From: Candidatus Bathyarchaeota archaeon
GTDB lineage: Archaea; Thermoproteota; Bathyarchaeia; 40CM-2-53-6
Assembly (NCBI GenBank): GCA_963706285.1
Contig: CAVPLU010000016.1
Location: forward strand, 48,111 to 112,110
Direction: 5' to 3'
Length of the DNA: 64,000 nt
A model generated the notes under the pieces. The model made no database searches, had not been told where the DNA came from, and was given only the letters and a program-made list of their open reading frames with translations. This document shows positions 9,333 through 51,844 of this stretch, one piece after another (position 1 is the stretch's first letter; each line of letters opens with the position of its first letter). Made by a program: the position numbers and the translations under genes.

Positions 9333-9369
9333 GTTCAAATTCGACTCTACGCACCATGAGATCCACACA
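9333..9369 (+). repeat. Dispersed site: tRNA-3'-like arm plus CGCACCA-N6-CCACACA
   Basis: GTTCAAAT-TCGAC-TCTACGC-ACCA-TGAGAT-CCACACA. Confidence 0.75.
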
Positions 9370-9405
9370 AGAGAATCCGAATGCATGACGTTTGGCTGTT
9401 AGGCG

Positions 9406-9834
9406 CTATTTCTTTCGCTTCTTCTTAGGGGCGGGAGTTCTCTTTTTCGTTATGTGGTAGATGTCGAGCCAGATTCCGTCGATGACTTTGAAGAATGCGA
9501 CTTTCCATTCGCCATCTTCAATTGGTCCAATCATGGGAGGATATCCAGCATCTTTTAGTCGTTGCACGGCTCCGTCGAAATCATCAACCTCGAATCCTAA
9601 GTGATCCAGCTCGTCACCTTCTTTGAAGGGGCCTGCGACTGGGCTGTCATCTGCGTACCAGTTGATCTCTAGCCAATGCTTCTCGTCGAGTGACAAGAGG
9701 TTTGCGAACTCCCCTTTGTTCGAAGGAGCCTTGATACGACCTTGCACCTTCATTCCGAGGACATTCGTGAAGAATTGAATTGCGTTATCGAGATCTCGGA
9801 CACGTATCCCCGTGTAACCGAACTTGAATCTCAT
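9406..9834 (-). CDS. VOC/glyoxalase family protein
   Basis: YTGIRVRDLDNAIQFFTNVLGM and ELDHLGFEVDD. Start placed at MRFKF because the upstream extension runs through the repeat sites. Confidence 0.88.
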   Translation of the reverse strand: MRFKFGYTGIRVRDLDNAIQFFTNVLGMKVQGRIKAPSNKGEFANLLSLDEKHWLEINWYADDSPVAGPFKEGDELDHLGFEVDDFDGAVQRLKDAGYPPMIGPIEDGEWKVAFFKVIDGIWLDIYHITKKRTPAPKKKRKK

Positions 9835-9895
9835 GATAGGCAAGAGTGCTCGTTTCGGTATTAAGACTGTACCAAGGACCGATGCCATACCAGTG

Positions 9896-9991
9896 TGTGT
9901 GGTAGTAATGGTGCGAGCGCCCAAATTTTGGCCGTCGTCGTTTGAGGTTTTTGTGTGTGGATCTATTGGTGCGGGCGCCGTAATTTGAACC
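9896..9991 (-). repeat. Two tandem copies (58-bp period) of the dispersed site
   Basis: On the + strand: TGTGTGG-TAGTAA-TGGTGCG (9896-9915) and TGTGTGG-ATCTAT-TGGTGCGGGCGCCGTAATTTGAACC (9954-9991). Confidence 0.78.
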
Positions 9992-10349
9992 GTCGATTGG
10001 CGTCGTAGTTTGACTGTGTGTGCGCACCAAGATGCCTGTATACACACAAGAATCAATGGTTTGAACCGTGACGGACGACGGGTTAGGGAAAGAATCCTCC
10101 TACTGATTCCTCATTTGATGACTGACTCAAAGGGGTCGATCATAATCACTATGAAGAGTCCGATGAAGCTTGTGTGATTCCGGCAAGACGAAGAAACCAA
10201 GAACCACATGGAGTGCATGAGAGAGCCCGACGAAACGCGCAATGACAGAAGTTAATCGAAATAATTGTGGAAGTCATTAGCGATTCCAGAAAATGTATTT
10301 GAAAAATGGGGGTAACTGGGAGCGTATGTCTCCCAGGTTACTTACGATT

Positions 10350-10874
10350 TTATGCCTTAACGTTAGGCTCGTACGCGAATAGTGTCTCGCTTCTCCAGAT
10401 CCCATCAGTATGACCTATTTGTTCGACCGTAGATTTCATGAGGTCCTCATAGTTCCTTGCCTTGGAACTCATGATGATGTCGAACTGACCTGGAATACTC
10501 CACGCGTCGTATATGGCGGGTAGCTTCTTCAGCTTCTGTATAACTTCCGGTAATGGCTTATTCACTGATAGGAGACTGAATCCCCAAACGCCCTCCGCGT
10601 CAAGTTTCTGACCGTTAACGAATCCATCATTTGCAGTGAAAGTATTGGTGCTGTTTACTCCGTGGATACTACGTATCTTGTTAACTATACTGTAGACTTG
10701 CTCTGGAGTACTGTTCTTGATTCGCATAATGATATCGTATCGACCGGTCACTGGTGCGCTGAACTCTATATCGCTGTACTTGCGTAGCTCCTCAACCACA
10801 TGTGGCAACCGGTCATGCTGGACCTTTGCGAACACGTAAGTCGGGAACATTTTGTTTGCTTGCATTATTTTCAC
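10350..10874 (-). CDS. Tandem Lrp/AsnC ligand-binding (RAM) domain protein without HTH
   Basis: Two repeats: VTGRYDII..IRSIHGVNSTNT and IPGQFDII..IGHTDGIWRSET. Confidence 0.8.
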   Translation of the reverse strand: MKIMQANKMFPTYVFAKVQHDRLPHVVEELRKYSDIEFSAPVTGRYDIIMRIKNSTPEQVYSIVNKIRSIHGVNSTNTFTANDGFVNGQKLDAEGVWGFSLLSVNKPLPEVIQKLKKLPAIYDAWSIPGQFDIIMSSKARNYEDLMKSTVEQIGHTDGIWRSETLFAYEPNVKA

Positions 10875-10929
10875 CTACTAACTCCAAGTATTGTTAAGCC
10901 TAAGTATAGCTGTATCATGCATATAACAG

Positions 10930-11664
10930 TTGTTACCAGAAGATATATCTGTAACATTCACCAATTCAGGCATGAATGAACCCATGAAAACGGTAAGAAG
11001 GCGAACGATATCCGGAGTCGTAGTGGATCTGTTAACGCGAAACCACCCCGTTTACCAGCACATTCGGATGGGACTCATCAACTATCACGCCTTAGCCGCA
11101 AGAATCAAGCCTACCGTGGACCGGATTACTGGCAGGGACGTGAACGTTAACACGATAGTTGTAATTATCAAGAGGTTTTCGGATGCACAATCCAAACTTG
11201 GGCTACCACTCACCATGTCCATACTTAGAAATTCAAAAATGAGTTTGAGTAGTGGAGTGGTTGACGTGACAATTACTCCTAAGAGAGAAGCTTTCATTGG
11301 CGAATTGAGGAGGCTCGTGGAACTATCTACTGAAATGGACGAACGCCCACATATCTTCCCCCTCGTCAACTCAATCAAGATCATTGCCGACGTAAACGAC
11401 TATGGAAAACTGAAAACGGCACTGAAAGGCCGATACTCCCTAAAGCCTCGAATGAATACGGTGAAAATTATGATACATCTATCCGAGGATGCTGAGAGGC
11501 CTCCTGGAATCGCCGCGTACATTACTGACCTGCTCTACCGCAACGGAATAAACATCATAGACGCATTCCTAGGATACGAAGACATCATCCTCATACTCGA
11601 TGAGTCAGATGGATCACGAGCATACACAATATTGGAAGAGGAGACCAGCGAAGCTCGCAAGTGA
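10930..11664 (+). CDS. Archaeal ACT-domain regulatory protein
   Basis: MGLINYHALAARIKP N-terminal motif and PGIAAYITDLLYRNGINII ACT domain. Confidence 0.8.
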   Translation: MLPEDISVTFTNSGMNEPMKTVRRRTISGVVVDLLTRNHPVYQHIRMGLINYHALAARIKPTVDRITGRDVNVNTIVVIIKRFSDAQSKLGLPLTMSILRNSKMSLSSGVVDVTITPKREAFIGELRRLVELSTEMDERPHIFPLVNSIKIIADVNDYGKLKTALKGRYSLKPRMNTVKIMIHLSEDAERPPGIAAYITDLLYRNGINIIDAFLGYEDIILILDESDGSRAYTILEEETSEARK

Positions 11665-11708
11665 GCCTGCCAATGCACTATTCGAGGGATGCGGCTACAA
11701 CTCTTTAA

Positions 11709-11835
11709 CGCGTGGGTCAGCTGGTGCGCGACGACGAAAAACGTCCCTCCCATGCGAGGTTCAATTCTGGGTGCTCCACACTAGTGACCACGACGACGGG
11801 TCAGATCCAGTAGTTTTGTGCGTGCGCACCAAGAG
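11709..11835. repeat. Cluster of degenerate copies of the dispersed site
   Basis: CGCGTGG-GTCAGC-TGGTGCG (11709-11728), GGTTCAATTCTGGGTGCTCCACACTAGTGACCACGACGACG (from about 11758) and GTGCGCACCAAGA (about 11822). Confidence 0.55.
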
Positions 11836-12018
11836 GCTCTCATGAGTGAGGAGCGAGACAGAGCACGAATCCTATCTCCAAATGCTTTGCGGCAGCCATA
11901 GACGGATACGTTCCAGTACGCAACCAGCTTGTGTTTGCAGCGCTTGCAGTTGAATGAGAAAAAGGAGGTCGAGCATGTGTTGTGCTCGACCTAGGTCGGT
12001 TTAGTTTCGACGCTCTAA

Positions 12019-12186
12019 TTACCAATAGTTCGGATATCCGTACGAACCGTAGGTGTATGGATAACTATACGAACCATAGCTGTAACCGTACGTTGGGTTG
12101 TCGCATGATGGATAACCGTACGACGTAGGGAACAGATAGTCCGATAAGTGATTGTAGTAAGTACCTCCAATAGTTACATGACCCAT
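12019..12186 (-). CDS. 55-aa Tyr/Gly/Ser-rich low-complexity peptide (not in ORF track)
   Basis: MGHVTIGGTYYNHLSDYLFPTSYGYPSCDNPTYGYSYGSYSYPYTYGSYGYPNYW. GGAGGTGG ribosome-binding site upstream. Starts 21 bp after the stop of the RHH gene. Confidence 0.7.
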   Translation of the reverse strand: MGHVTIGGTYYNHLSDYLFPTSYGYPSCDNPTYGYSYGSYSYPYTYGSYGYPNYW

Positions 12187-12207
12187 TTTTCTTTCCACCT
12201 CCCCTTC

Positions 12208-12372
12208 TTACATCCGATCTCCAGGCTTCGACCAAGCCTTACCTAGCCAGTCATTGACAGCTTCCTCGATCGCGCAGCTGAGGTCTCCTTTCTTCCCTCC
12301 GAGCCTCTTCACAATTGTCAATCGCAGTCGGTGCTCAACATTGTCCGAGAGCACTACGTAGATTCTTCCCAA
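12208..12372 (-). CDS. Ribbon-helix-helix protein, 54 aa (not in ORF track)
   Basis: MGRIYVVLSDNVEHRLRLTIVKRLGGKKGDLSCAIEEAVNDWL. Clear paralog of the gene at 12466-12762. Confidence 0.8.
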   Translation of the reverse strand: MGRIYVVLSDNVEHRLRLTIVKRLGGKKGDLSCAIEEAVNDWLGKAWSKPGDRM

Positions 12373-12410
12373 AGATTATCTGGCCGAACCCTATATGCGC
12401 AAAGCGCGCT

Positions 12411-12420
12411 ATAAGCTTAT
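12411..12420. promoter_or_regulatory. Palindrome ATAAGCTTAT, candidate RHH operator
   Basis: About 40-50 bp upstream of the RHH start. The same palindrome lies upstream of the paralog. Confidence 0.5.
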
Positions 12421-12465
12421 CTATTTAACGTTATACAGATATAACTGCATGACTGCGACTGAATT

Positions 12466-12762
12466 TCAGTACGTCTTGGGGGCAGATTTAGAATGCGTGT
12501 ACACATCGGTCTTTTTGGGATCATGCTCATTGTTCTCGTTGGATCGTTTCGAAGCACGGGGTCTCTCTGGACCTCTTTCATGCAGCTGGCCGCGCACCCA
12601 TTTGGTAATGTCGGCTTCTGTCGCATGTTTGTCCAGCCATTCTTTGATAGCCACCTCGATGGCACTGCTTAGATCGCCCTTCTTTCCGCCGAAAATTGTG
12701 ACAACGGCCAGTCGGAGTCTGCGTTCCGTTTCGTCAGAAAGAACTATGTACATCTTACCCAA
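12466..12762 (-). CDS. Ribbon-helix-helix protein with charged C-terminal tail
   Basis: MGKMYIVLSDETERRLRLAVVTIFGGKKGDLSSAIEVAIKEWL. TTG start chosen by alignment with the paralog. Confidence 0.8.
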   Translation of the reverse strand: MGKMYIVLSDETERRLRLAVVTIFGGKKGDLSSAIEVAIKEWLDKHATEADITKWVRGQLHERGPERPRASKRSNENNEHDPKKTDVYTHSKSAPKTY

Positions 12763-12793
12763 AATCAACATTCCCCTGACGGACGCCATATTC

Positions 12794-12833
12794 AGCTTAT
12801 CGATATAAGCTTATAACTTATAACCTTATAAGC
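12794..12833. promoter_or_regulatory. CTTATA/TATAAG repeat cluster with TATAAGCTTATA palindrome, candidate RHH operator/promoter
   Basis: AGCTTATCGATATAAGCTTATAACTTATAACCTTATAAGC, between divergent genes. Confidence 0.55.
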
Positions 12834-12871
12834 GGCACAGTTCAACTATTTTAGGTCCTGAGTTAATTGAT

Positions 12872-13132
12872 ATGAGCAAGATCTATTCTATGATAGCACC
12901 TTTACTTGGCGTAAGTTTGTTTCGAATTCTTAACGAATTAGGTGTGAATCAGACTGCAGGTTCTATGGTTAATTCAGCCTATACGTGGCTGGTGACCCTG
13001 AATCCGATCCTACTGATAATCCTGGGCATAATCGTATTCGTCGCTGGGAGGCTAGCGAAATGGATCGGCATCATAATGGTCATCGTCGGCGTCATCTTCC
13101 TAGTCCTACCGTACATACTAGGCGTCATCTAG
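12872..13132 (+). CDS. Small membrane protein
   Basis: Two strongly hydrophobic helices in the C-terminal half. Confidence 0.65.
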   Translation: MSKIYSMIAPLLGVSLFRILNELGVNQTAGSMVNSAYTWLVTLNPILLIILGIIVFVAGRLAKWIGIIMVIVGVIFLVLPYILGVI

Positions 13133-13147
13133 CCGAGGCCGTGTAAC

Positions 13148-13318
13148 ATGAGCAAAGAAGAAGTAAAGGGAAAAAGTAAGCAAATCAAGGGACAGATTCG
13201 TGAAGAAGTAGGCAAATTGACGAAGAACAAAACGGAACAGCTCAAAGGCAAGATTGAGCAAGTCGAAGGAAAAGCACAAGAGGAAATAGGGAAGTTCAAA
13301 AGAAAGGCCAAAGAGTAA
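13148..13318 (+). CDS. CsbD-like stress protein, 56 aa (not in ORF track)
   Basis: MSKEEVKGKSKQIKGQIREEVGKLTKNKTEQLKGKIEQVEGKAQEEIGK matches the CsbD/YjbJ pattern. Confidence 0.85.
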   Translation: MSKEEVKGKSKQIKGQIREEVGKLTKNKTEQLKGKIEQVEGKAQEEIGKFKRKAKE

Positions 13319-13491
13319 GCCGACGTTCTGGCACGTACGCGCGCACTAATTTTCTCCGTAGTTTTGCGTTTACAGAGCTTTTTCAACTGTTTGGATACTC
13401 ATGCTCTGCTCAGCTGAAAGAAGAATTGTGTAGCGTAGTCTCACCAAGGCTTATCTACAAATTTCGAATAATTAGCATCCGGGTAATCATA

Positions 13492-13692
13492 ATGGCTGTG
13501 AAGATACTGGAACTGATAGGAAGCTCCGATAAGAGTTGGGAGGATGCAGTGCAAGAGGCCTTGAGAGAAGCCGCGAAAACTGTGAGGGAAATCGTTGGCG
13601 TAGATGTGTTGGGATTCAAAGCAGATGTGAAGAATGGCAAGATTAGCCGATATAAGGCCCACGTCAAGATAGCCTTCACCGTTGAACGATAA
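13492..13692 (+). CDS. Dodecin (flavin-binding) family protein
   Basis: KILELIGSSDKSWEDAVQEAL..YKAHVKIAF. Confidence 0.9.
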   Translation: MAVKILELIGSSDKSWEDAVQEALREAAKTVREIVGVDVLGFKADVKNGKISRYKAHVKIAFTVER

Positions 13693-13721
13693 TTCAATCC
13701 GGTAACATTGGAGGATCACGG

Positions 13722-13937
13722 ATGTTATCGGAACTCAAGACTTGTGGCATTTGTAACAGGGAGAACCTGCCAGAGAGCAGTTTTTGTGACCTATGCGGAT
13801 CGCCTTTCGAAGTTCTGGTGGAATGCAGTTGCGGATGCTGTCATCCTGAAGCAGTATTCTCTGATCCAAGCGACTATCCTGAAGCAGTATTCTTGATAGA
13901 CTATCCTGAAGCAGTATTCGCGACAATTATTGGTTAA
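13722..13937 (+). CDS. Small zinc-ribbon protein with triple (D)YPEAVF repeat
   Basis: CGICNRENLPESSFCDLCG. ATCCTGAAGCAGTATTC repeated at 13843, 13876 and 13903. Confidence 0.55.
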   Translation: MLSELKTCGICNRENLPESSFCDLCGSPFEVLVECSCGCCHPEAVFSDPSDYPEAVFLIDYPEAVFATIIG

Positions 13938-14515
13938 CACTTAACGCTAATCGCATTCGAAGATTACTCTATCCTTACATCAGAACTAGCTGACAAGATA
14001 CGGAAGACTAGAGCCTCAAAGAGGGAACGAAACGCAGCACCAAGTGACCCGACAACGACGATAAACGAACGCCTATCCTGTGGCAGTTCAATTCGCTGCA
14101 ATGAGAGCCGACACGCGGACAGAGCACCGCCAGTACGGGTCCTTTTTCAGATGTGTACCCTTAAGCACACAACCACCTGAGGAACCCCCGACATCCAAGT
14201 CCCGTGAAAAGGCGAGCCTGTCTAACCTATGATGATGACAGGCCAGTGAAACTGTGGCATGACTGCCATACGCGACACTCAGCGCTCGTTAATGACACAG
14301 GCATTACCCCTCCGAAGAACTCTCGGTGCGGCAAATACGGACGATCTCGTGCAAGCAACGAGTCGCAACTCTTTAGCAGCTTGCAAGCATCCGCGTCAGA
14401 TATCGGCATCTACTGTCTCTCGAATGCTCAATTTTGGGGTGTTCTGATCCCGAAAGACTCTTACAGCAGATTATCCCATACAGTTGAACTGGGATTGTTC
14501 TTGAGATTCAAGTCG

Positions 14516-16144
14516 GTGAAATCGCGAACAATAGTTCTGGCTGCGTTGATTTTGGTCGCGTATTTTGTTGGTTTGCTTGTACCGCAAGCGCATGCCTGGA
14601 ACCTATCCTCGAGTCCTGCGACGAGAACGACGACACCCGGCGGCACGGTTACGTTTACGATCTCGGTTTTTTACGAGCCTCCCGAGGCCGTTCTTGGGAC
14701 GGTCCAGCTGTTGGTGTCGCCTCCAGAGCTGGGCTTAACGCCCAGTTTTTCGCCGACAAGTGGGTCTATTCCGTTTACCTCAACCTTGACGGTTCAAGTA
14801 AGCGCCACGAAGGCAGTTGGGGTTTACTCTCTCCCTGTGTGGGCGCATCCTACAGCCATCCCCTACCCCGGCCCTGGCAACAAAGCAATTAATGTGCAAG
14901 TTGTGGTGGCAGCAGCTTCAACGGATTGGGCATTATCAAGTCCCACATTGTCACCTGCTTCTCCTAACGTCGGAGACCCAACCACCTTCCAAGTGATTCT
15001 GACCGCTTTGAGCACGAGTCTATCTTATCCGCAGAGTCCAACCCTTCTTGCGCAAGTCGATGGCGTCCCCGTCGGTGGTGGTTCCGTAAGCTACCCCGGC
15101 CCAACAGGGATCCCGGCTACTGTCTACTCGGCGCCGCCATGGTCTGCCACAGCCGGCACCCACACGATAGTTTGGACAGTAAGTTCTGGAGTCTCAGATC
15201 CTAACCCGTCGAACAATCAGGTGTCGCGTACGTTCACGGTGGGGCCTCCGCCCGCTCAGTTTGATTTCGAAGTATTGGCCTCACCGACTGATAGCACAGC
15301 AACGCCCGGGAGCAGCACTAGCTACACAATAATGGTGAATCTCCTCTCCGGCTCAACTCAGAGCGTCACACTGAGCTTATCCGGACAACCGGGAGGCGTC
15401 AGTGGAGCATTCTCTCCTTTGTCTGGAAGTCCCACGTTCTCATCGTCGCTGACGCTTTCCGTTGCTTCTTCTGTCTCCACGGGAAGCTACACAATGACTG
15501 TAACTGGGGTCGGCGGAGGCAAGACGCACACAGCCACAATCAAGCTGACCGTGTCACAAGCTCCAGACTTCCGGATTGATGTGAGCCCGCCGTCTGTGAG
15601 TGTCAGCCAAGGACAGGTAGCCTCTTACTCTGTCAGCATCTCGGGTCTGAACGGATTCAACTCGCAAGTCTCGTTATCAGTCTCAGGAGCACCAGCTGGC
15701 GTCAATCCTGTATTCACCGTCCCGTCAGGAACCCCCAGTTTCAATTCGATTCTGACCGTTACCCTTCCAGGCAATGTCCAGACCGGTTCCTTCACTTTGC
15801 AGATAACAGCGTCGGGGGGAGGTCTCACTAAGATCGCGAATGCTGTGCTAGTCATCTCGGCTGCTACTGGAACTCAAACTCAAACACAGACTCAAACCGA
15901 AACGCAGACTGAAACAACGACTTCAGGTGTCTTACCGTTCGACATATTCCAACAGAGCAACCTGCTCTTGATAGCCGTTCTAGCCATAGTGATACTGGCG
16001 CTTCTTGCGCTGTTGCTGCGAAGGCGGAAGTCTGCTTCGCCGCCTCCACCACCCGCCAACCCCTGTCCAAAGTGCGGCCAACCATTGACGTACGTCAAGG
16101 AATATGATCGATGGTACTGCAACAACTGTAAAGAGTACAAGTGA
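14516..16144 (+). CDS. Secreted/surface protein with Ig-like repeats, Thr-rich linker, TM helix and cytoplasmic zinc finger
   Basis: Signal peptide ending AHA, beta-rich repeats (F.P.SG.P.F.S.LT), CARDB-like SNN motif, TQTQTQ linker, TM helix and CPKCG..WYCNNC. Confidence 0.85.
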   Translation: MKSRTIVLAALILVAYFVGLLVPQAHAWNLSSSPATRTTTPGGTVTFTISVFYEPPEAVLGTVQLLVSPPELGLTPSFSPTSGSIPFTSTLTVQVSATKAVGVYSLPVWAHPTAIPYPGPGNKAINVQVVVAAASTDWALSSPTLSPASPNVGDPTTFQVILTALSTSLSYPQSPTLLAQVDGVPVGGGSVSYPGPTGIPATVYSAPPWSATAGTHTIVWTVSSGVSDPNPSNNQVSRTFTVGPPPAQFDFEVLASPTDSTATPGSSTSYTIMVNLLSGSTQSVTLSLSGQPGGVSGAFSPLSGSPTFSSSLTLSVASSVSTGSYTMTVTGVGGGKTHTATIKLTVSQAPDFRIDVSPPSVSVSQGQVASYSVSISGLNGFNSQVSLSVSGAPAGVNPVFTVPSGTPSFNSILTVTLPGNVQTGSFTLQITASGGGLTKIANAVLVISAATGTQTQTQTQTETQTETTTSGVLPFDIFQQSNLLLIAVLAIVILALLALLLRRRKSASPPPPPANPCPKCGQPLTYVKEYDRWYCNNCKEYK

Positions 16145-16246
16145 CGCTCCGAGTAACCTTCATGTTCTCGCGCCCGCTACTACGCAGTTCGCAAACCCAT
16201 ATCGCTATATGAAAGTTGGTACCGTTCACAACAGCAGGGAAAATCT

Positions 16247-16618: not shown

Positions 16619-16808
16619 TTTTCATCACAGACACCTAACCCCTCTCCTTTTCTTTCTTCGTTTGGTAATTAGAAGCTGCGTCCCTATCGTCGGCTGTACC
16701 TCGCGAGAGAATGACATTCGACTAGGACGAGTCGGGTGCGTCCTTTCGCTTGTGCCCACCCACTATAGGCTCTGATGTGGGCTCGCATCCACTAAGGGTG
16801 GATATCGG

Positions 16809-17030: not shown

Positions 17031-17072
17031 GCTTTGAATCTCTCGGCGAGTTCTGATCGAAATGCATGACCG

Positions 17073-17468: not shown

Positions 17469-17564
17469 CTTCTATCCTTACTGTGGGAGTTGGACATTAG
17501 ACGATAAATGTGTTGCCAATACAGCCGTACGGTGCGGCCGGTGGGTTCTATGGAGCGCCACAGG

Positions 17565-33486: not shown

Positions 33487-34011
33487 CTAGCGAATCTTTC
33501 TCAATCCTTTCGGATACCGCAGTGCCAAGTCTGCGTAGACATCCTTGTATTTGCTCCAAACCTGTTTGTCGGAGTCCGATACGTCTCTGATTATTTTCGC
33601 TGGAACACCAACAGCGACTTTTCCGTCTGGGATTGAAGCTCCGCTTGCGACGACGGCGCCTTCACCTACGATGCTCCAAACTCCTACTGTTGCGTAGTCG
33701 CTTACGATCGCGCCAACGCCTATCACAGCATAGTCTTTGACTGTGCAGTTGTGGAGTATGGCGCCATGCCCGATTTGGACATAATTTCCAACTTCGCATT
33801 TTTCGTTCATACGTGCATGTAGAATGCAGTTCTCTTGCACGCTTGTCTTGTCGCCAATTATGATAGATCCGTAGTCTCCTCTAATTCTAGCGCCTGCGCC
33901 GATGTAACATTGAGCTCCGATCCTGACATCGCCGATAACCTTCGCATCCTCATCGACGTACGCTGTCGAGGCAATAGAGGGGATCCGTCCCTCAAACTCA
34001 TGTATTGTCAA
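33487..34011 (-). CDS. Gamma carbonic anhydrase family protein
   Basis: Hexapeptide repeats, RGD, QEN..H and GH.AILH. Confidence 0.92.
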   Translation of the reverse strand: MTIHEFEGRIPSIASTAYVDEDAKVIGDVRIGAQCYIGAGARIRGDYGSIIIGDKTSVQENCILHARMNEKCEVGNYVQIGHGAILHNCTVKDYAVIGVGAIVSDYATVGVWSIVGEGAVVASGASIPDGKVAVGVPAKIIRDVSDSDKQVWSKYKDVYADLALRYPKGLRKIR

Positions 34012-34040
34012 ATCATTTTCCGCCTAGTTTGGCCAATTTC

Positions 34041-34389
34041 CTATTTGCGGAGGTAGTCGTCTTTTCCGCTGAGCCAGTCCTCTCTAATCGGGCTGAAGAC
34101 ATCTAGATCCAGAGTCTCCTCAAGAGCCACCGCGCTATGTTCAACCGATGATGGGATATGAAGAACTTCACCCTCGTTCAGCGTCACTTCCTTGTCAGGA
34201 AGACGGAGCCTTAGAGATCCTTTGAGAATGTAGGTCATCTGTTCGCTTTCGTGGCTGTGCGAGGGAACAATGCATCCCTTCTTGAGGAAGACCTGAGCAA
34301 GCATCACTTTCTTGCCTGTGATCAATTTGCGCGATAACTTGTCGGTTACCTTCTCCTCCAGGAATCTTGCTCCAGTTGTAGTGGCTCAT
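34041..34389 (-). CDS. Cupin domain protein (frameshift near 34360)
   Basis: HSHESEQ and IPSSVEH. N-terminus MSHYNWSKIP is in a different frame. Confidence 0.85.
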
Positions 34390-35291: not shown

Positions 35292-36633
35292 GTGAAGGTG
35301 AACGATCGGCACGAAATTTTCGGCTGGGCTATGTACGATTGGGCGAACAGCGCTTTCGCGACAACTGTCTCTGCGGTCTTCCTAGGTCCATATCTGACGA
35401 CTCTGGCAAAGGCTGCTTCTGACAAGAATGGATTCGTGTACTTGCTCGGTATCGGGATTGCTCCTGCATCATTCCTGCCATATGCCGTGTCATTGTCAGC
35501 GCTGTTACAGGTTTTGATTCTACCGATATTGGGGGCAATAGCCGACTACTCGCACTTACGTAAGCGCATGCTAATGATCTTCACCGCGCTGGGTGCGACT
35601 GCCACGACGCTACTGTTCTTCGTGGAAGGGAACTTGTGGTGGCTCGGTGGAGTCCTATATTTGATCGCGAGTCTCTCCTTCGCCGCATGCATTGTCTTCT
35701 ACAATTCCTATCTTCCCGACATTGCAAGTGAGGATCAACGCGATCGCGTTTCCTCATTTGGTTGGGCGCTCGGCTATCTTGGCGGCGGACTATTACTGGT
35801 GTTCAATCTCGCATTCTACCAAGCAAGCCCTTGGATCTTCGGTGAAGCAAGTACAGGCTTGACTCGTTCGTCTCAATTTGGCGTCGGCTGGCATATGGTG
35901 GATGGGATGGTCAATTTGGACTTTCATGACTTTACGACCTCGCAATGGGGTACCCAAATTGCTCGAAGGCGAGGCCTATCTCACGATTGGCTTCAGAGAA
36001 ATGGCGGCAACACTTCGCGAGATGCGACGTTATCCGCAGACTCTTCGTTTTCTCTTGGCGTATCTGATCTACAACGACGGAGTGCAGACAGTGGTCGTTA
36101 CAGCAGCGATTTTTGGAGCAGAGGCTCTGAAGATTTCACAGTCGACGCTCGTCCTCGTGATTTTGATGGTGCAAGTCGTGGCTTTCTTTGGAGCGCTCCT
36201 TTTCGGTAGGATTGCTGGTCTGGTCTCCGCTAAGACCGCAGTACTCATCAGTCTAGCGATTTGGTCTGGAACGGCATTCTACACCTATGGATTTCTCTCA
36301 AGCGAATTCGAGTTCTGGCTGCTCGGCGGCGTAATTGCGCTCGTCCTCGGAGGGAGTCAAGCGTTAAGCCGAAGCATCTACGCCCAGATGATACCTAAGC
36401 ACAGGGAAGCCGAGTTCTTTTCTTTCTACGAGTTGGCCGATCGTGGCAGCTCCTTGTTGGGACCACTTGTCTTCGGTTTGACAAATCAATGGCTCGGCAG
36501 TCTCCGATACGCGGCCTTGTCAGTGAGCTTCTTCTTCGTGGCAGGCCTAGCATTATTGACGCGTGTGAATGTTCAGAAAGCAATACAAGACTCACGAGTC
36601 AGGCAAACACACGATCCTACAGTCAGAAGCTAG
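35292..36633 (+). CDS. MFS transporter, UMF1/Atg22 type (frameshift near 35865)
   Basis: WAMYDWANSAF, FYNSYLP, GYLGG, YNDG and QALSRS. Confidence 0.88.
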
Positions 36634-36638
36634 CGGGC

Positions 36639-37481
36639 CTAGTGCTCGTTGCTTGATTGTGAGATCTTCGTTGGGTGTCGTTGCTCTATGTCTTTTCGCA
36701 GCATCTCAAGCTGATTCGGTCTATCGACATCCATCGCGATTTCCACATACGGACAAACAACCGGTCTGATCCTTAGACCTGTACGTTGAGCTATTCTCTT
36801 TACAACTCGATCCGAATCGATCGTGCCGAACGTCACCGAGAAGAGCGTGGAGTACCCAAGGTAGTGGATTATGATGCCGATTTTCTTGAGCAGGTCTCTG
36901 CGTCCTTCTGCTAGGCGATCCATAAGTTTGTAGTTCTCGGTGATCGCCGTGATTCGAAATGCATTGATCAGTCCTCCGCAGAAATCTATGTCCTTCAATC
37001 GTGTTCCTTCAAACGGAAACGGGCGCTTAGAGCCTGGATAGCGAGCTTCCAAATCTTGCCGTGTGACAATGGTATAGCATACATCTTGATCGGCTTCATT
37101 CGCAGAGTGAACCACCCAATCCACCATCTCGGAGGTGATTGCAGGTATGTCAGAAGTGACAAGAAGAGCGTACCGAGCTGTCGGATCTATCTCCGCGACT
37201 TTCTTGAATCCAACGCGTACGTTCTCAAGGAGACTGCCCTGGTTGGGTAGGAGGAAGTTACGCTTCGAGCAAGTCATCTCGTTTTCTGGTAGTCCGACAA
37301 TCACAATTTGGTCAATGGTCTTAGCGCCCACTAACGCATCCAGGACCCATTGGATCATTGGTTTCCCGCAGATATCCAAGAGAGCCTTCGGTTTCCCCAG
37401 TGTATATCTGTAAAGTGGATCATCGGGTTCAGGAATACCGCCGGCAATCACGACCGCATCCATTTTCGACTCCTTCCTCAC
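36639..37481 (-). CDS. MobA-like NTP transferase
   Basis: DAVVIAGG..KAL, SDIP and MDVD. Confidence 0.8.
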   Translation of the reverse strand: MRKESKMDAVVIAGGIPEPDDPLYRYTLGKPKALLDICGKPMIQWVLDALVGAKTIDQIVIVGLPENEMTCSKRNFLLPNQGSLLENVRVGFKKVAEIDPTARYALLVTSDIPAITSEMVDWVVHSANEADQDVCYTIVTRQDLEARYPGSKRPFPFEGTRLKDIDFCGGLINAFRITAITENYKLMDRLAEGRRDLLKKIGIIIHYLGYSTLFSVTFGTIDSDRVVKRIAQRTGLRIRPVVCPYVEIAMDVDRPNQLEMLRKDIEQRHPTKISQSSNEH

Positions 37482-44406: not shown

Positions 44407-44412
44407 GCAGGA

Positions 44413-45684: not shown

Positions 45685-45695
45685 GCATTGCTCAC

Positions 45696-46271
45696 CTAGC
45701 TTGATCTGTTCGTCTGTTTGGACTCGTTGAATCCGATCAGAACGGTGCCCAAGTTCGGGTCATCAGGATTCCAGCCCGCTTTCTGTGAGAAGCGAAAATG
45801 CACCGGGATCGTAATCGTGATCGAAACGACTTCTTTCACTCCGGGAATTTCTTCGATCTCCGGAAATGGTAGAGCCTTGTACATGAGTTTGAGAGGCTTC
45901 CCTTTGGCCTTTGCAAGTGCGTCACGATAGAGAACCAGACTCTTGCCTAGGAACAGTGTGTTCGGATCCTTCGAGAGCTTCTCGAATTGGCCGGGTTCCC
46001 AGATCTCCTCACCTACTACGTTGTCTTCATCACACATCAATATGATAGGGCCTGGCGGATGTCTCAAAGTTGGAGAATGAGAAATCACTACTACATGCTG
46101 ACGGGCAAGCGCGTCCTTGATTCCTTCGTTGACGATATCCATTCCCGGTAGTCCGAGGCGAGAATTCGCTTCATTCTCAAGCTGCCGCAGTGAGTCTCTA
46201 TCTTCATCCGGCACAACCCAGCACGCCACGACGCCAGGCGTATTCAGTAGTCGCTCTAATGACCGCGTCAA
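45696..46271 (-). CDS. Hypothetical protein co-oriented between mtrH and the MFS gene
   Basis: Uninterrupted 191-aa ORF with tight operon-like spacing. Confidence 0.7.
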   Translation of the reverse strand: MTRSLERLLNTPGVVACWVVPDEDRDSLRQLENEANSRLGLPGMDIVNEGIKDALARQHVVVISHSPTLRHPPGPIILMCDEDNVVGEEIWEPGQFEKLSKDPNTLFLGKSLVLYRDALAKAKGKPLKLMYKALPFPEIEEIPGVKEVVSITITIPVHFRFSQKAGWNPDDPNLGTVLIGFNESKQTNRSS

Positions 46272-46304
46272 CTGCGTCCATGATATCGTCTTCTCAGAGC
46301 TAGG

Positions 46305-47204
46305 TCAACCGATTCTGTAGCGTGGATGGGTTTTTGGAATCTGGATTCTCTTCTCTATTGGGAGTTGACTGTAGGCTGTGTCAACCATTGCTACGGCGGG
46401 AAAGACCACTTTCGCATCATCGATCGGTCCGTAGAGTATGAAATCTGCTCCAACCGCAGCGCTTACGGCGTTCACCGAAGCGAGGCATGGTTTCACAGCT
46501 TGCTCTCCCATTTTGCTCTTCAGTCCTTTCCACAGTGCAACGGCGTTGTGTGCACCGCATCCCACGGGAAACCCCAGTTCATCTTTCAGGTCATACATCG
46601 CACGGAGAGCTGAGCCGAGCGTCGGTAAGTCAAGCACGCAAGTATCGATCAATGGTTTCTCAATTCCGAACTCTTGCCGCTTGCTCACGAGTTCCTTGAT
46701 CGCGCTAATCCGCCCTGCAGTGCTGAAGTCTTTCATATTGTATGCAAGAAGGACTGAGCTTGAGACGCCGGATGATTGGATCGTCTTCAGTTCGTCCGGT
46801 TTGCTGCTCGGATTAATTGAGTTGTAGACTACGCGGTCAAGGATTCCCTGCTCCTTCGCGTGCGCGAGCCCTACTGCTCTTATCTCTGCTGATGGACTAT
46901 CGATCATGAGTGGCGCTTTGGTCCGATCTGCAACAAACTCAAGATGCGTCTTCATTGCTGGAATGCTCGCACTAACGACGTCTATCATAGCGGGGTTCCC
47001 GGTCTTGTCAGACATCTCGTCCTGAGTCTTCACGAGCGCCTCGGCAGCTGCTTCATCAAATGTTCCAGCATTTTCGTCTTTCACAATCTTGTGGCCGTGG
47101 TAGAATAAGGTGCCAACAAGCACCACGGGGCGTTGTCCCGGAATACCGCCGATGCTGATGCCGCCAATCTGGAAGACTTTCTGTTCAGCTTTGAAATTCC
47201 ACAA
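46305..47204 (-). CDS. mtrH: MtrH-family pterin-binding methyltransferase
   Basis: EQKVFQIGG..GG.PG..P.VLVGTLFY, MIDS, YNSIN, GCGAHN and GADFILYGPI. Confidence 0.88.
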   Translation of the reverse strand: MWNFKAEQKVFQIGGISIGGIPGQRPVVLVGTLFYHGHKIVKDENAGTFDEAAAEALVKTQDEMSDKTGNPAMIDVVSASIPAMKTHLEFVADRTKAPLMIDSPSAEIRAVGLAHAKEQGILDRVVYNSINPSSKPDELKTIQSSGVSSSVLLAYNMKDFSTAGRISAIKELVSKRQEFGIEKPLIDTCVLDLPTLGSALRAMYDLKDELGFPVGCGAHNAVALWKGLKSKMGEQAVKPCLASVNAVSAAVGADFILYGPIDDAKVVFPAVAMVDTAYSQLPIEKRIQIPKTHPRYRIG

Positions 47205-47297
47205 GCGTATCGGCGTCTCCTATTCGAACGTTAGTAAATGTACGGGATTGTTTTCTTTGATAAAGCAGTCGGAGCAGGGGAGTCGAATAGATCGCCA

Positions 47298-47505
47298 TCA
47301 CTTACGTCTGATTGAGAAAAGCACTTTCTCTGGTGTGAGAGGGAGACTGAAGACTCTAGATCCGGTTGCATCATTGATGGCGTTTGAGAGGGCTGCCGCA
47401 ATTGGAACCAGCGCGATTTCTCTTACCCCTTTTGCTCCAAATGGACCGGATTTCTCGAAAATCTCCACAGGCACGGCTTCAATTTCAGGCGCGTCCGCAA
47501 GTATA
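47298..47505 (-). pseudogene. C-terminal remnant of a xanthine dehydrogenase/CoxL-family molybdopterin subunit
   Basis: Hand translation: SGPFGAKGVREIALVPIAAALSNAINDATGSRVFSLPLTPEKV, with no start codon. Confidence 0.8.
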
Positions 47506-47778
47506 CTACGGAGTCTTCATTTCGGTGAGGGGATAGATTTCGTATGCGGCGAAATTGTGGACAGGCATCTTAGCTAGGATAGTTTCCAGCTCTTCGTTGG
47601 ATTTCACTTCACATATCCACGCGCCGCCATGTCTGCCGACCACGTGGTAGTAGTGTTCAAGCTTCTGCTGGGCATGGAGCTCCTTTGCATAACTCTGAAG
47701 ATCGGAAAGCATCTTCACCATTTCGGGCATGCCAACCCTAATTCCAGCTTGAAGATTCCAAAGAACTAGAAACTTCAC
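47506..47778 (-). CDS. Muconolactone isomerase-like small protein
   Basis: MKFLV..EVKSNEELETILAKMP..YEIYPL pattern. Confidence 0.65.
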   Translation of the reverse strand: MKFLVLWNLQAGIRVGMPEMVKMLSDLQSYAKELHAQQKLEHYYHVVGRHGGAWICEVKSNEELETILAKMPVHNFAAYEIYPLTEMKTP

Positions 47779-48046
47779 GATTTTGCCGCTCCGATTATGA
47801 TTCTTCCATTGTTGGACTTAAGCTCTGCTGGACCCAAGCAATGGATACTGGGTCCTACGTGTGGGGGACTCTCTTAGTGCACATATACCGAGTAGGAATG
47901 TGCTCACTTGGCACTTAGCGGAAGGCTGGAGCCTTAGCCAGCTAACAATCATGCCTGCATTCCTGGGTGCCAGAGATGTCTGGATGTGAACTCTGGTTCA
48001 GGAATGGGGAAGTTTGATCAGTTCGATAGGAAGGAGGCTGAGTAGG

Positions 48047-49348
48047 CTAGCTTCTTTGTGTTTGTTTCTTTCCTTTCTTCTTTATTGTGTCTAGAATCGC
48101 TTTGTGAGCCATCAGTCTTATTGCGTTTATCTTGATGAAGCCCATCGAGTCTGTTTGGTCGAATCCTCCTGCTTTGTGCATGGAGCCTAACTCTTCGTCG
48201 TATAGTGAAGTGGGCGATTCTCTTCCGACTGTAAGCACGTTGCCTTTGTACAGTTGCAGAGTAACCTTGCCGTCCACGTATTCTTGGCTCTTGTTGAATG
48301 CTGCTGTAAGGAAATCCATCTCTGGCGAGAACCAGAATCCATTGTAGACTATCTGGGCGTATATGGGGGAGAGCATGTCCTTCAGTCTCATTACTTCTCG
48401 GTCCATTGCTATTGCTTCAATGTCTCTATGTGCAGCCATGAGGATGGTGCCGCCGGGTGTTTCGTACACGCCTCTCGATTTTATCCCGACGTATCTGTTT
48501 TCCACCATGTCTATCCTTCCAACTCCGTTCTCGGAGCCGAGTTGGTTCGCGTAAAGGAAAAGCTCTAGCGGGTCGGTTTTTACTGTGCCGTCGTTCTTGT
48601 TCTCTATTTTGACGGGAGTTCCGTCTTTGAAGTGCACCACTATAGTGGTGATCTTGTCCGGTGCCTTCGCGGGTGAGGTGGTTTTTGAGTATACATTTTC
48701 TTCGGGCACATGTGCAGGGTCTTCGAGTATGCCTGCTTCATGGCTGATATGCATCAGATTATCATCCTCAGAATAGGGCTTCTTGTGCGTCTGCGTAATC
48801 GGAATACCGTTCTTCCTGGCATAATTCATGAGGTCGTCTCTGCCCTTGAATTGCGCTAGGAACTCCGCATTTTTCCAGGGAGAGATTATCTTGATATCTG
48901 GTTTCAGCGCATAGTAAGAGAGTTCGAATCTCACTTGGTCATTGCCTTTGCCAGTGGCGCCGTGTGCAACATAGGCTGCTCCTTCCTGCTCTGCCACTTC
49001 TATCTGGTATTTGGCGATAAGGGGTCTTGCAAGTGAAGTGCCAAGAAGGTATCTGTTTTCGTAGATCGCATTTGCACGAATTGCGGGAAAAATATAGTCG
49101 GTGACAAACTCCTTTCTCAGGTCTCTTACCACTACTTTCTTGGCACCGATTTCTCTGGCCTTTTGTTTTGCAGCCTCAAAGTCTTCCTGCTGACCAACAT
49201 CCGCAATATAGCAGATCACCTCGTACCCCTTGTCAATAAGCCACTTGAGTATGCAGGAAGTGTCCAATCCGCCCGAATATGCTAGAACCACTTTCTTGTT
49301 AGTTTCCTCGCTAACTCTGAGCGCCTCGCCTTCCGCTTCGTCTCCCAT
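48047..49348 (-). CDS. argG: Argininosuccinate synthase
   Basis: [24 protein letters not shown] and [10 protein letters not shown]. Confidence 0.97.
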
Positions 49349-49494
49349 GTCAAATACCTCCGGACTTACCCAGCCGTGGTGTGCGTTTAATTCGATTCTT
49401 CGTTATTAAGGCGCACCAGAACCGCACATAATCAGTAGTCCAAGTCCTCAATAGGCGGCAATGAGGAGTCTTAAGAACAGACAGAATGGAATCC

Positions 49495-49612
49495 TGGTGC
49501 GGAGAGCAACAATTGAAGCTCGCCAAGTTACTTCCTATCCTTTGGGCAATTTGAAGCGTCGTTCGTGCGTTGGAATTTGATCTCTGTGTGCGAGCACCAG
49601 TCTACCCACACA
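49495..49612. repeat. Dispersed-site copies left of the 49.6-51.7 kb module
   Basis: AGCACCA-GTCTAC-CCACACA (49593-49612, +) and degenerate TGGTGCGGAGAGCAACAATTGAAGC (49495-49519). Confidence 0.65.
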
Positions 49613-49640
49613 AGCGATAATAGCTCACAGTGCTAGTGCC

Positions 49641-50913
49641 ATGAATGCCTTGACCACCAAGATTGTTCCATTGCTCCTTCTTGGGATTTGTCTGTTTTGC
49701 CTCTTGCCTCAAACCAAAGCCGTTGACATACCTTCCGCTAAAGTGGTGTCTCTCTACGAATCCATCCTAGACACGGACATAGCCACCCTAACCAAAATCC
49801 TAGTCGAAACTAAAACAGAGGTCATATTCAGGGGATATTTCAGATGGGGAAAGGAGAGTCTTGGCGACTATCCGCGGCTTGCTAATCGGATCAAGAGTCT
49901 CAAGACAGCAATGCCCTGGATTCATTTTATGGGAGGCATATCATGCGCGAACTTCGTGGACGGTGACTATTGGCCTAACGGCACCATTGTTTCTGCAGAT
50001 CAGAAACTTCAGATGTTATGGATAGTCCCTAATGGGACGATGCCTCGACATTTCGCTGACCCTGACAAAGCCTACGTCTTGGACATATCCAAACCTCTTG
50101 CAAGACAGTTCATCCTGCAACATTCGTACAAGTTGATCGATGCTGGCTTCGACTCGCTCTTCTTTGATGAGGTCTCATTCATACCTTGGAACAGCGGGGG
50201 CTTCTTAACGACTTACGGTTTGGGGCAGAATTTCCGAGGAGCCGTATTTGGAAGCTTGGAAGGAAATCTCGTCCTCTGTCAAAGAGTATGCCCGAACCAT
50301 CTATCGAAAGGAATTGCCAGTCACGCTCAATAATGGAAATGTGAACGCGATCGGAGAAGATCGTTGGTCAGCAAACCGCTATTGGCCTTATCAGGACTTC
50401 ATCTCAATAGGGATCAATTTGCAGACATTGGAGACTTTATCGATTCAAGACGATTGGGCTGGCTACAAGGCTGCGGTCCAGCAAGCATACGGTCGTGTAC
50501 CGGCGACTATGATTTTCATGGATTGGGGAAAGCCTCCAACTCCAATGTCGCTCTTTAGCAACCTACCCGTGGACGAGCAGGTTAGGATGCTGAATATGTC
50601 TCATGAGAGAGCTCTGCGTGAAGGCTTTCTCTTCGTTTATCCATTGCATGGCGGCGCAATGTCAGAGTACTCATCTGTAGCGTACGACGCTTGTAGAGAA
50701 GGAACCTATGACACTATACGACAATTGACGAACACACCAGTTGGAACATACACACAGACTGTTACCGCAACTTCAACAGTAACCGCACAGGTCATTACAA
50801 CAATGACAATCAACACGCTTGGAACTAGTCCTAGTGCATTCGTAATTATGGCTGTAATTTGTGTTCTTATAGGATCGATGGCAGTCAATCTGAAGCGCCG
50901 GACTCTCGAGTAG
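49641..50913 (+). CDS. Secreted, membrane-anchored glycoside-hydrolase-like protein (frameshift near 50230)
   Basis: Signal peptide, YVLDIS..GFDSLFFDE TIM-barrel-like motif, Thr-rich linker and C-terminal TM helix. Confidence 0.65.
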
Positions 50914-51389
50914 CGTGATATGTCGTAATTGGAATTCCGGGTTTGCGATTTTGTGTGAGCCCCATCATACGTGCAATGCCAGCCTCTAGATCTGCATCGT
51001 GATTCGGGTCGTTCTTCCACGTGGCGTCCAAGTCGCATTGACTGTTCATGCACTCCACCAAGGTATCCACCACGCGGAAAAGGAAAAGAAGGACCGCAGA
51101 TGCGTCGCATGATTGAGACGAACCATGTTGAGGCGAGCTCTTTCAAGGATGTCAAAGTATGTTGGAGGTCTGGTTTGTACGTTCGGTGGAGTATACTTGG
51201 GTAACGCATACGGGGCGTCTTACTGGCGGTACGGGCCTTTCAACCTCGCTTGGGATACACTATTTCGAGGAAGCGTTCTGGTACTCATAGGGCTCATACT
51301 GATCCATGGTAAGGAAAGCTGATACTCACCTCTATATGCGCCGACTCATACATGCATATCAGACGCCAGACGATCCGAGGTGAATTATC

Positions 51390-51665
51390 ATGGTAGATGA
51401 AATTCCAGAAAGCGTGAACGAAAGAATTCGACTCATTGAACGAGCGATAAAGAATCAGTGTAGAAGTCTGCAAGTGAAGGATCAGGATCAGCACATAGAA
51501 ATCAGCGGGCACGCTGGCAGACTCTCGAAAGAAGAGAAAGACGCGCTTAGAAACCTAGGAATACGTCATTCAACCTATGGAGCTAAATTGTACAAGGAAC
51601 GCGACGAATACGGTGACTATGTCAAGTCACTGATTAATCGGGGTTTGATAACCTCCACTCGATAA
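51390..51665 (+). CDS. Hypothetical protein
   Basis: 91-aa ORF with GAGGTGA RBS upstream. Confidence 0.6.
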   Translation: MVDEIPESVNERIRLIERAIKNQCRSLQVKDQDQHIEISGHAGRLSKEEKDALRNLGIRHSTYGAKLYKERDEYGDYVKSLINRGLITSTR

Positions 51666-51766
51666 TCGATTAGAGGGCCCTTTCAAGATTCTCTGATATT
51701 GGTTGGCGAAAGCAGTCTGAGTAATAACCAACGAAGATCCAACATTTCGTGGGACGACTGTTCGTG

Positions 51767-51844
51767 TGTGTGGGTCGCGTGGTGCGCGTCGTCGTTAGGC
51801 ATCGTGTGTGGTTCTCCTAGTGCGGGGGTCGGAATTTGAACCCC
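51767..51844 (-). repeat. Two tandem dispersed-site copies, the outer one with a tRNA-3'-like arm
   Basis: On the + strand: TGTGTGG-GTCGCG-TGGTGCG (51767-51786) and TGTGTGG-TTCTCC-TAGTGCGGGGGTCGGAATTTGAACCCC (51805-51844). Confidence 0.78.

Follow-up and report, generated by a model that had tools for sequence, protein, structure and literature searches.

A lineage-specific family of short mosaic repeats with the likeness of a tRNA 3' end in the accessory islands of an archaeal genome

Introduction

A bipartite motif, CGCACCA-N6-CCACACA, recurs between the genes of a 64,000-nucleotide stretch of an archaeal genome (G000:C16:48111-112110, called the window here and numbered from its own first nucleotide). 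What kind of element does this motif belong to, and does it take part in the movement of the genes around it? A preliminary description had noted its resemblance to the 3' end of a tRNA and had proposed that the copies are ends derived from attachment (att) sites, which bracket small cargo genes in inverted orientation and serve a recombinase acting in trans. We find that the motif is part of a lineage-specific family of short mosaic DNA repeats, a repeat of the short interspersed or att-like kind, which works as DNA and neither as RNA nor as a promoter.

The assembly of G000 comprises 2.13 Mb in 21 contigs, with a completeness of 89% and a contamination of 7.5%. Some of its contigs are second-strain copies of others (C7/C6 at 96% identity, C15/C16 at 95-97%, C20/C4, C11/C10 and C5/C4; 92-97% over all pairs), which inflates the copy counts given below but also provides internal strain comparisons. 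The comparison set held 41 related genomes including G000, whose genus (g1) is represented by nine other species. Further metagenome runs (X1, X2, X4 and X5) were compared as short assembled Logan contigs, in which uncovered parts are not evidence.

Results

Seven matches to the motif with at most two mismatches were found in the window; in 100 shuffles that preserved the dinucleotides the mean was 0.27, and none reached seven. All positions of the preliminary description were reproduced, with exact copies at 9350(+), 9896(-), 9954(-) and 51767(-), copies with one mismatch at 49593(+) and 51805(-) and a copy with two mismatches at 11709(-), and all of these are indeed intergenic. The reported tRNA register, TTCAAAT followed by 12 nt and ACCA or ACTA, is present at 9333-9356, 9967-9991(-) and 51818-51843(-). 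ACGACGACG-type runs lie beside many copies, and the preferred spacer, NNN-GA(C/T)/TAC, is seen in the window as well as across the genus. Among the weaker copies that had been listed, the one at 49495 was recovered by a profile search (49489-49517(-), E 0.021), whereas those at 13325 and 14036 stayed below every model threshold used; judged by eye, the copy at 14036 is a degenerate unit.

In an alignment of 36 anchored copies the motif proved to be embedded in a unit of 45-57 nt, which reads (a)ACGAC-GGTTCAAATT-N5-GCY-CGCACCA-N3-G/T-A-C/T-CCACACACA-caa. Three blocks are fixed, namely block A (GGTTCAAATT), block B (GCY-CGCACCA) and block C (CCACACACA), and the information content beyond the approximately 50 nt of the unit is essentially nil. 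The motif has 19 exact copies in G000 and 70 with at most two mismatches, some of them due to chance. An nhmmer profile built from 19 copies gave 49 matches at E<=0.01 and 59 at E<=0.05. At the stricter cut-off 48 of 49 copies are intergenic, in a genome of which 27% is intergenic (p about 3e-26), and 38 of the 49 fall in only 9 of 114 bins of 20 kb. The median distance between nearest neighbours is 778 nt, compared with 16,750 nt for random placement, and the GC content around the units is marginally lower than that of the genome (0.505 and 0.510).

The units stand alone, in tandem arrays of two or three with a period of 48-65 nt and similar short linkers, or in head-to-head pairs of 38-90 nt, including a perfect 38-nt pair at C9 33481-33518. 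Partial units exist as well, in which a module of blocks B and C follows TGTGTG or CGTCGTCG in place of block A. Neighbouring copies in G000 (at most two mismatches, at most 3 kb apart) form 20 direct, 7 convergent and 3 divergent pairs. The inverted bracketing of the preliminary description is thus real for the glyoxalase-family gene (9350+/9896-) and for 49593+/51767-, but it is a minority arrangement genome-wide; single genes are not generally enclosed by inverted pairs. Copies resemble each other over at most about 110 nt, the length of two tandem units, and G000 therefore has no longer parent element.

Exact copies of the motif occur in 16 of the 41 genomes: besides G000, these are 9/9 genomes in g1, 4/5 in g4, 1/1 in g15 and one g13 genome with a single copy. 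The exact motif was absent from six g2 and three g3 genomes of the same family as G000, and a reversed control pattern had no match in any of the 41. The spacers evolve in concert, with a preference for AAGRGA, GCCTAC and TGAGAC in g1, for YYAGAC in g4 and for AAGGTA in G034, a genome of another family. This concerted change, together with the patchy distribution, indicates turnover and horizontal spread and does not fit a conserved regulatory site.

The likeness to a tRNA could be assigned to one specific gene, as the preliminary description had anticipated for a tRNA ending in CGC-ACCA. An intron-bearing tRNA of G000 (C4:162292-162429) ends in this way; its last 25 nt (C4:162405-162429) read GGTTCAAATCCCGGCGGCCGCACCA, and by manual count 22 of them agree with the consensus of the unit. 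Blocks A and B with the 5 nt between them mimic this tRNA end, and the N6 spacer and block C mimic the trailer of this tRNA. The tRNA end is conserved in g1, g4 and g15, with a match in 11 of 13 loci; in the other two the contigs stop just before the tRNA 3' end. In G034, AGGTACCCACACACAC directly follows the tRNA, so that tRNA end and trailer together make up the full motif, and 17 of the 18 dispersed copies in this genome carry a 20-mer identical to tRNA end plus trailer. In G023 the trailer is present in degenerate form and a further block A comes after it; in the g1 genomes the trailers of the tRNA are unrelated. One contig (G005) ends exactly at the CCA of this tRNA and two others (G007 and G008) end 5-11 nt before it, which is compatible with heterogeneity at this place, though contigs often break at tRNAs.

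As to the tRNA complement of G000, almost all tRNA genes detected are interrupted by one or more introns. ARAGORN gave 3 doubtful genes without introns and 26 with introns, and RF00005 gave 16. The set looks incomplete and some anticodon calls are unreliable.

Several candidate identities were tried and rejected. A tRNA, a tRNA pseudogene or a split-tRNA half is not compatible with the data: no unit matched the covariance model (the 16 RF00005 matches in G000 are all real tRNAs and none is a unit), ARAGORN called no unit as a tRNA, and the units lack a T-stem, as the bases round TTCAAAT pair at 2.08 of 5 positions on average over 24 copies, where 1.9 would be expected at random. Rfam gave no match in the window and none at the units in viral contigs. 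A structured RNA was discarded because RNAalifold found no consensus structure on either strand (0.0 and -0.55 kcal/mol). A tRNA-primed retroelement, for which the reverse strand would resemble a primer-binding site, was dismissed as well, RVT_1 having matches in 2 of the 41 genomes and none in G000.

A core promoter or terminator was rejected on the grounds that orientation and distance to genes are not fixed. The units occur in 19 tandem-anti, 12 tandem-co, 10 divergent and 7 convergent contexts relative to genes. The distance from block C to the downstream gene start ranges from 2 to more than 500 nt without a mode; the fixed distance that the preliminary description had named as the mark of an operator was therefore not seen. 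The tRNA promoters of G000 read CTTTAWR at about -30, unlike GGTTCAAATT. On the side of block A, 12 of the 21 neighbours that face the unit with their 3' end lie within 100 nt of it, and gene starts are at least 119 nt away. Units that abut gene 3' ends and keep away from starts show the pattern of tolerated insertions. A run of T4-5 is found on the reverse strand beside block C.

The family is confined to accessory DNA, viral contigs included, and in G000 it is located in islands. In the window, the island begins at 8081, the base after an intron-bearing tRNA gene (7939..8080, +; C16 56049-56190; found by aragorn -i only, with none in the ARAGORN default run), whose 3' end is the left edge, and it extends to about 15.1-16.3 kb. 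Homology with two sister genomes, G008 and G009, stops at 8079/8082, and contigs of X2, X4 and X5 diverge at 8080/8083. G008 has approximately 250 nt and G009 approximately 770 nt in place of the island at this tRNA locus. The C3 island of G000, a large one, starts 47 nt past another tRNA, and in G016 a unit stands 17 nt past the matching tRNA end. The regions that hold the sites are accordingly variable, two of them having a tRNA 3' end as their starting point, and sister species do not keep the bracketed genes in synteny; both points agree with what had been supposed.

The feature annotated as the window island (8081..15139) consists of single-gene modules with interspersed units, which encode thioredoxin-like, HAD, glyoxalase, AsnC-type, ACT, RHH-like, small membrane, CsbD-like and dodecin-like proteins. 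These names come from Pfam, except for the CsbD-like, dodecin-like and thioredoxin-like proteins, which were named from a reading of the translated sequence. Over the islands, the single-gene cargo includes catalase-peroxidase, cupin, KARI-like, CMD, flavodoxin, hemerythrin, flavodiiron-like, SDR, MFS and CorA proteins, as well as glyoxalases, SRPBCC, isochorismatase, thioesterase, HAD and cupredoxin proteins and AsnC/HTH regulators. No recombinase was present among the 50 island proteins scanned. For certain small modules the identity between species is 85-94%, against 70-77% for the core genes of those species; the contexts of these modules differ, each time with units nearby at varying distance and in varying orientation. 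On C9 of G000, the segments 33557-34224, 35856-36274 and 36489-36746, with DUF3796 and HTH genes among others, are 85-94% identical across species of the genus, and such identity suggests recent exchange between species.

The clearest view of events at the units came from G001, which is 96-97% identical to G000 and has its modules rearranged. Here, a hybrid unit joins the glyoxalase-HAD block of the window to the C3-type tRNA; its crossover lies in block A, GGTTCAAA deriving from the C3 copy and TTTGGGCG...CGCACCATTACTACC from the 9896 copy of the window. The other side of the block is occupied by the module found at 29.6-31.0 kb of C3, which has units at both its ends. Internal block ends between G001 and G000 lie within 40 nt of a unit in 6 of 23 cases, compared with 3.4% of random positions within 3 kb (binomial p about 1e-4), the six ends corresponding to four independent junctions. 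Synteny breaks against a near-identical relative thus fall in the sites above chance, as the preliminary description would have it, and this excess is located inside the units. The loose end of an X5 contig at 8609 closely resembles the junction sequence of G001 in our own comparison with G001:C335, which argues against a mis-assembly of G001 there. Between the strain-variant contigs C15 and C16, a replacement of 1.05-1.3 kb has a right edge that abuts a unit in both. A duplication between C3 and C10 ends exactly after block C, and a paralogous block of C9 and C14 starts at the N6/C edge.

An enzyme acting on the units was sought in the relatives and in viral contigs. A sequence-only model made from 16 units (R1) was used on 58 integrase loci (29 + 29) and found full units near the integrase in three of them, G009:C50, G002:C50 and G009:C227, the last at a distance of 2 kb. 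In G009:C50 the order is tRNA-Ser, integrase, an open reading frame (ORF) of 97 amino acids and unit, and in G002:C50 two units flank the integrase region; homologues of the G009:C50 integrase were also scanned for units. The integrase locus of G016:C8 (L246) has two weak partial matches to blocks B and C. A scan of IMG/VR with the 21-base full pattern returned two contigs. One, G041, is a 51.7-kb fragment of a head-tail virus with a sole integrase of 363 amino acids (PF00589 and a zinc ribbon), and it carries a full unit 256 nt upstream of the integrase gene and 860 nt from the contig end. The other, G042, is a provirus in which two direct units lie close to one of its edges. The expected position of the motif beside an integrase was hence encountered, with full units in one viral contig and two relatives. 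As for direct repeats flanking an integrase-encoding element, only one-sided cases were seen (G041, G009:C50 and G002:C50). We regard this link between units and integrases as suggestive but anecdotal.

Two other kinds of enzyme were considered for G000. An IS200/605 or RAYT element was rejected, since G000 has no Y1_Tnp and its single TnpB (C10:220335) is far from any unit, and Tn7- or Mu-like ends were rejected as no rve-type transposase was found there.

Separately, G000 holds at C4:5130-5423 a fragment of the N-terminal third of an integrase beside a tRNA-Ser-like gene. Compared with residues 1-98 of the G009:C50 integrase, its identity is 77%; the tRNA sequence itself makes up part of this match. 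The fragment has the look of an integrated element in decay.

The units of the window vary in completeness. A full unit with blocks A, B and C at 9320..9375 (+; exact motif 9350-9369; nhmmer E 1.5e-08) begins at the stop codon of the HAD gene. The next, at 9890..9945 (-; exact motif 9896-9915), is a full unit with a diverged block A (GGCCAAAATT), to which the hybrid junction of G001 maps; it is the first of a tandem pair whose second member, a full unit at 9948..10003 (-; exact motif 9954-9973; nhmmer E 1.2e-13), lies 58 nt from it. A partial unit of the type TGTGTG-CGCACCA...CACACA follows at 10018..10050 (+; nhmmer E 0.43). Homology with G002:C165 starts at 10015, and an X1 contig of depth 3 joins 10032 to 11729. 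The feature at 11709..11835 is a composite without assigned strand, made of an inverted B-C module (11709-11728, -, two mismatches), a CGACGACG run, a copy of block A (11756-11776, +) and a partial block B (11815-11835, +), and its layout recurs in the viral contig G042.

Towards the other end of the region, the partial unit with blocks A and B recovered at 49489..49517 (-) is located at a synteny break with the closest relative: homology with G001:C176 (L009/L295), upstream of argG, ends at 49493-49517 inside it. A B-C module at 49588..49615 (+; motif 49593-49612, one mismatch) is preceded by TGTGTG, and another at 51763..51787 (-; exact motif 51767-51786) by CGTCGTCG. The full unit at 51799..51854 (-; motif 51805-51824, one mismatch; nhmmer E 4.6e-12) ends in ACTA, not ACCA. 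Between these two repeat groups, the segment 49616..51762 is variable, with a frame-shifted surface-protein-like gene and small ORFs, and pieces of it sit on different contigs in other species. The gene in question (49641-50913) has a Thr-rich stretch at the C-terminus and a membrane anchor, lacks a Pfam match and is read in the overlapping frames 49641-50333 and 50248-50913; the split could be a frameshift or a sequencing error.

Other observations concern the island of the window. A non-coding stretch of 130-140 nt at 11803-11941 is 91% identical in G002:C112. Both of its edges are also places where contigs of X1, X2 and X5 stop, and the word depth of one X1 contig that covers it is 47; the stretch may represent a small RNA or a further mobile module. 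The paralogous small genes at 12208-12372 and 12466-12789 are related to ribbon-helix-helix proteins and may be a regulator pair of plasmid or toxin-antitoxin type; the interval from 12790 to 12840 contains AT-rich CTTATAAG-type repeats. The search for a protein that recurs in the islands yielded only a family of large secreted or surface-type proteins with 15 members and weak fn3/CBM9 matches, of which 7 lie within 500 nt of a unit. Members in G000 are C3 33670-37506, C4 175489-180075, C16 10710-13238 and window 14204-16144.

Discussion

Our tentative preference, held with somewhat less than even confidence, is that the units are DNA-level att-like sites which are recombined in trans by the integrases of integrating elements. 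They would travel with accessory DNA and mark where the chromosomes of the lineage break and rejoin, and single-gene modules would be inserted, lost and exchanged at them. Integrative viruses or plasmids aimed at a tRNA 3' end would have left some units as remnants and used others as secondary targets, and the integrases acting in trans would be brought in by such mobile elements. This proposal explains the tRNA register, the islands next to tRNA genes, the motif-completing trailer in G034 and the copies in viral contigs. The data establish the DNA-level repeat family, its resemblance to the 3' end and trailer of one tRNA, its restriction to accessory DNA, its concerted evolution and the surplus of rearrangement junctions within units; that integrases act on the units and that the exchange is site-specific are inferences.

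A number of observations weigh against this proposal. The 5 nt that correspond to the T-stem vary between copies, which are therefore not simple duplications of a single tRNA end. Both orientations, tandem arrays with a period of 48-65 nt and head-to-head pairs are not predicted by simple integration into a tRNA gene, and only two, perhaps three, of about nine islands adjoin a detected tRNA. In the comparison with G001, 17 of the 23 block ends are not at a unit. Junctions were located within block A, at block B, at the N6/C edge and where block C ends; as they have no one fixed position in the unit, their place differing from case to case, they do not demonstrate site-specific exchange. The recombinase which that description had linked to the sites did not emerge either. 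No PF00589, Y1_Tnp or rve-type transposase was detected in the 89% complete G000, rve giving only a sub-threshold match of 19.5 bits. Across the 41 genomes the presence of an integrase does not track the presence of the motif: G003, G004, G005, G006, G021 and G034 have the motif but no PF00589, and integrases of g2 and g3 come without the motif. About 55 other integrase loci have no full units, and the homologues of the G041 integrase, those of relatives as well as that of another viral contig, are not close to any unit. Mixed orientation, tandem arrays, the variable T-stem, the varying junctions and the missing enzyme are thus left unexplained by att-like sites.

These same five features are accounted for if the units are selfish repeats like the repetitive extragenic palindromes (REP) and bacterial interspersed mosaic elements (BIME) or the miniature transposable elements with inverted repeats (MITE), spread by a trans-acting transposase or by gene conversion and piling up where insertion is tolerated. 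Junctions at units would then be a by-product of recombination between dispersed copies. A mosaic built from a handful of short motifs facing either way, in which there are tandem arrays as well as head-to-head pairs 38-90 nt long that end in TGTGTGG...CCACACA, is in line with this, as are the closeness of the units to gene 3' ends and their distance from starts on the A side, the lineage-specific spacers, the 17 near-identical copies of G034, the patchy distribution, the different longer repeats of G034 that end in the same 22-24 nt, and the fact that no enzyme is consistently adjacent. We regard this explanation as the close rival of att-like sites, though as somewhat less likely. Against it, the units have no internal palindrome or fold, no target-site duplication was seen by eye at the six compact pairs of 38-90 nt with inverted B-C ends, similarity between copies never reaches beyond about 110 nt, and no RAYT/Y1, rve or reverse transcriptase gene was found in G000, its lone TnpB being far from units. 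Why the units are so strongly restricted to islands, and why they keep the exact register of a tRNA with its CCA, would also remain without explanation. No related autonomous transposase element was found in G000, and inspection of the flanks of the G034 copies, made without a Pfam search, revealed no transposase-like ORF.

A function as regulatory DNA, be it an operator, an insulator, a nucleation site for a silencer or a promoter or terminator module of a stress or redox regulon, appears improbable to us. The neighbouring cargo is rich in genes for oxidative stress and detoxification (catalase-peroxidase, flavodiiron-like, hemerythrin, CMD, glyoxalases, flavodoxin, cupredoxin), three fixed blocks with variable spacers resemble a protein-binding site, and the spacing from TTCAAATT to CCACACA would suit the distance from TATA box to start in archaea. 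In G034, copies at L127 and L136 with the TGTGTG-type module lie approximately 21-27 nt downstream of TATA-like boxes (CTTTAAATA/CTTTAGATA), and some copies may, judging by such boxes, be placed at transcript 5' ends. Intergenic repeats of halovirus HF2 are reported to carry promoters (PMC8707807). However, the units occur in all four gene orientations, their start distances have no mode, and the tRNA promoters of G000 are of another type. Genes adjacent to units have, on reading the sequence, TATA-like boxes of their own between unit and ATG, unit positions are not conserved between species, and the spacers evolve in concert. A transcribed tRNA-like RNA, which could serve as processing signal, 3' tag or small RNA with a mimic of T-arm and acceptor, is largely refuted and has very little probability left. 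The succession of T-loop, 12 nt and ACCA is exactly that of a tRNA, and the real tRNAs of G000 have a genomically encoded CCA; yet the T-stem pairs at the level of chance, neither RNAalifold nor Rfam (where RF00005 matches real tRNAs only) supports an RNA, and the units have no strand bias relative to genes. A bolder idea, which we deem unlikely, is that of an integron-like cassette platform built independently in DPANN archaea, with small modules captured and reshuffled at mimics of a tRNA 3' end plus trailer. Its recombinase would come from integrating viruses or plasmids or from an unrecognised family, and the tRNA gene would be the founding attachment site.

How do the units compare with known systems? 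Archaeal and bacterial integrative elements with integrases of SSV, pNOB8 or pTN3 type are reported to target tRNA 3' ends (PMC8371274, PMC5495485, PMC7253208). The units resemble the att sites of such elements in that their sequence has the likeness of a tRNA 3' end with its CCA, that a tRNA 3' end is where islands start, that copies are found beside an integrase in a viral contig and two relatives, and that rearrangements occur at tRNA-end-like sequences. Unlike att sites, they number dozens, in both orientations and in tandem arrays, do not keep the T-stem part and carry the fixed non-tRNA block N6-CCACACACA; most are far from a tRNA or an integrase, and the assembly of G000 has no integrase. 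With REP and BIME sequences of enterobacteria and pseudomonads they share short length, high copy number, strictly intergenic location, mosaic clusters in both orientations, a frequent position just past stop codons and the character of hot spots at which rearrangements occur and accessory DNA is inserted. They differ from these in not being palindromic, in their confinement to islands and their tRNA-end likeness, and no RAYT gene was found.

As in the attC sites of integrons and the repeats of Vibrio cholerae, the family separates small, mostly single-gene cassettes, which encode glyoxalase, cupin, SRPBCC, thioesterase-type and regulator proteins. Archaeal integrons have been reported. In contrast to integrons, there is no IntI or attI (PF00589 has no match in G000) and no R''-L''/L'-R' hairpin symmetry, unit orientation is mixed, and cassette ends are not precisely joined to the repeats. 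The 6-bp spacer and the occasional inverted pairs round one gene are reminiscent of the pdif modules of Acinetobacter, but the arms CGCACCA and CCACACA are not inverted repeats of each other, no Xer-type recombinase was found in G000, and direct pairs are commoner. Since each of integron attC, pdif, MITE and REP fails in at least one defining feature tested, the family is a member of none of them. The intergenic repeats of halovirus HF2, which are reported to measure 29-58 bp and to act as AT-rich promoters upstream of genes (PMC8707807), are similar in size, given the 57-nt tandem period here, and likewise lie between the genes of an archaeal mobile genome; the units described here differ from them, as so described, by having no fixed orientation or distance to genes. 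A narrow keyword search of the open-access literature found no published description of this repeat.

Conclusions

DPANN archaea have small genomes, and their gain and exchange of accessory genes are poorly understood. A conserved, searchable tag would offer a handle on gene flux in an uncultured lineage: it marks accessory islands, lies at rearrangement junctions of near-identical genomes and occurs beside an integrase in viral contigs. As a practical marker, it can serve to delimit islands and may explain contig breaks in these metagenome-assembled genomes. If an enzyme acts on the sites, they would constitute a new site-specific system with a mimic of a tRNA end as its target; if none does, the family would join the small number of REP-like repeats described from archaea.

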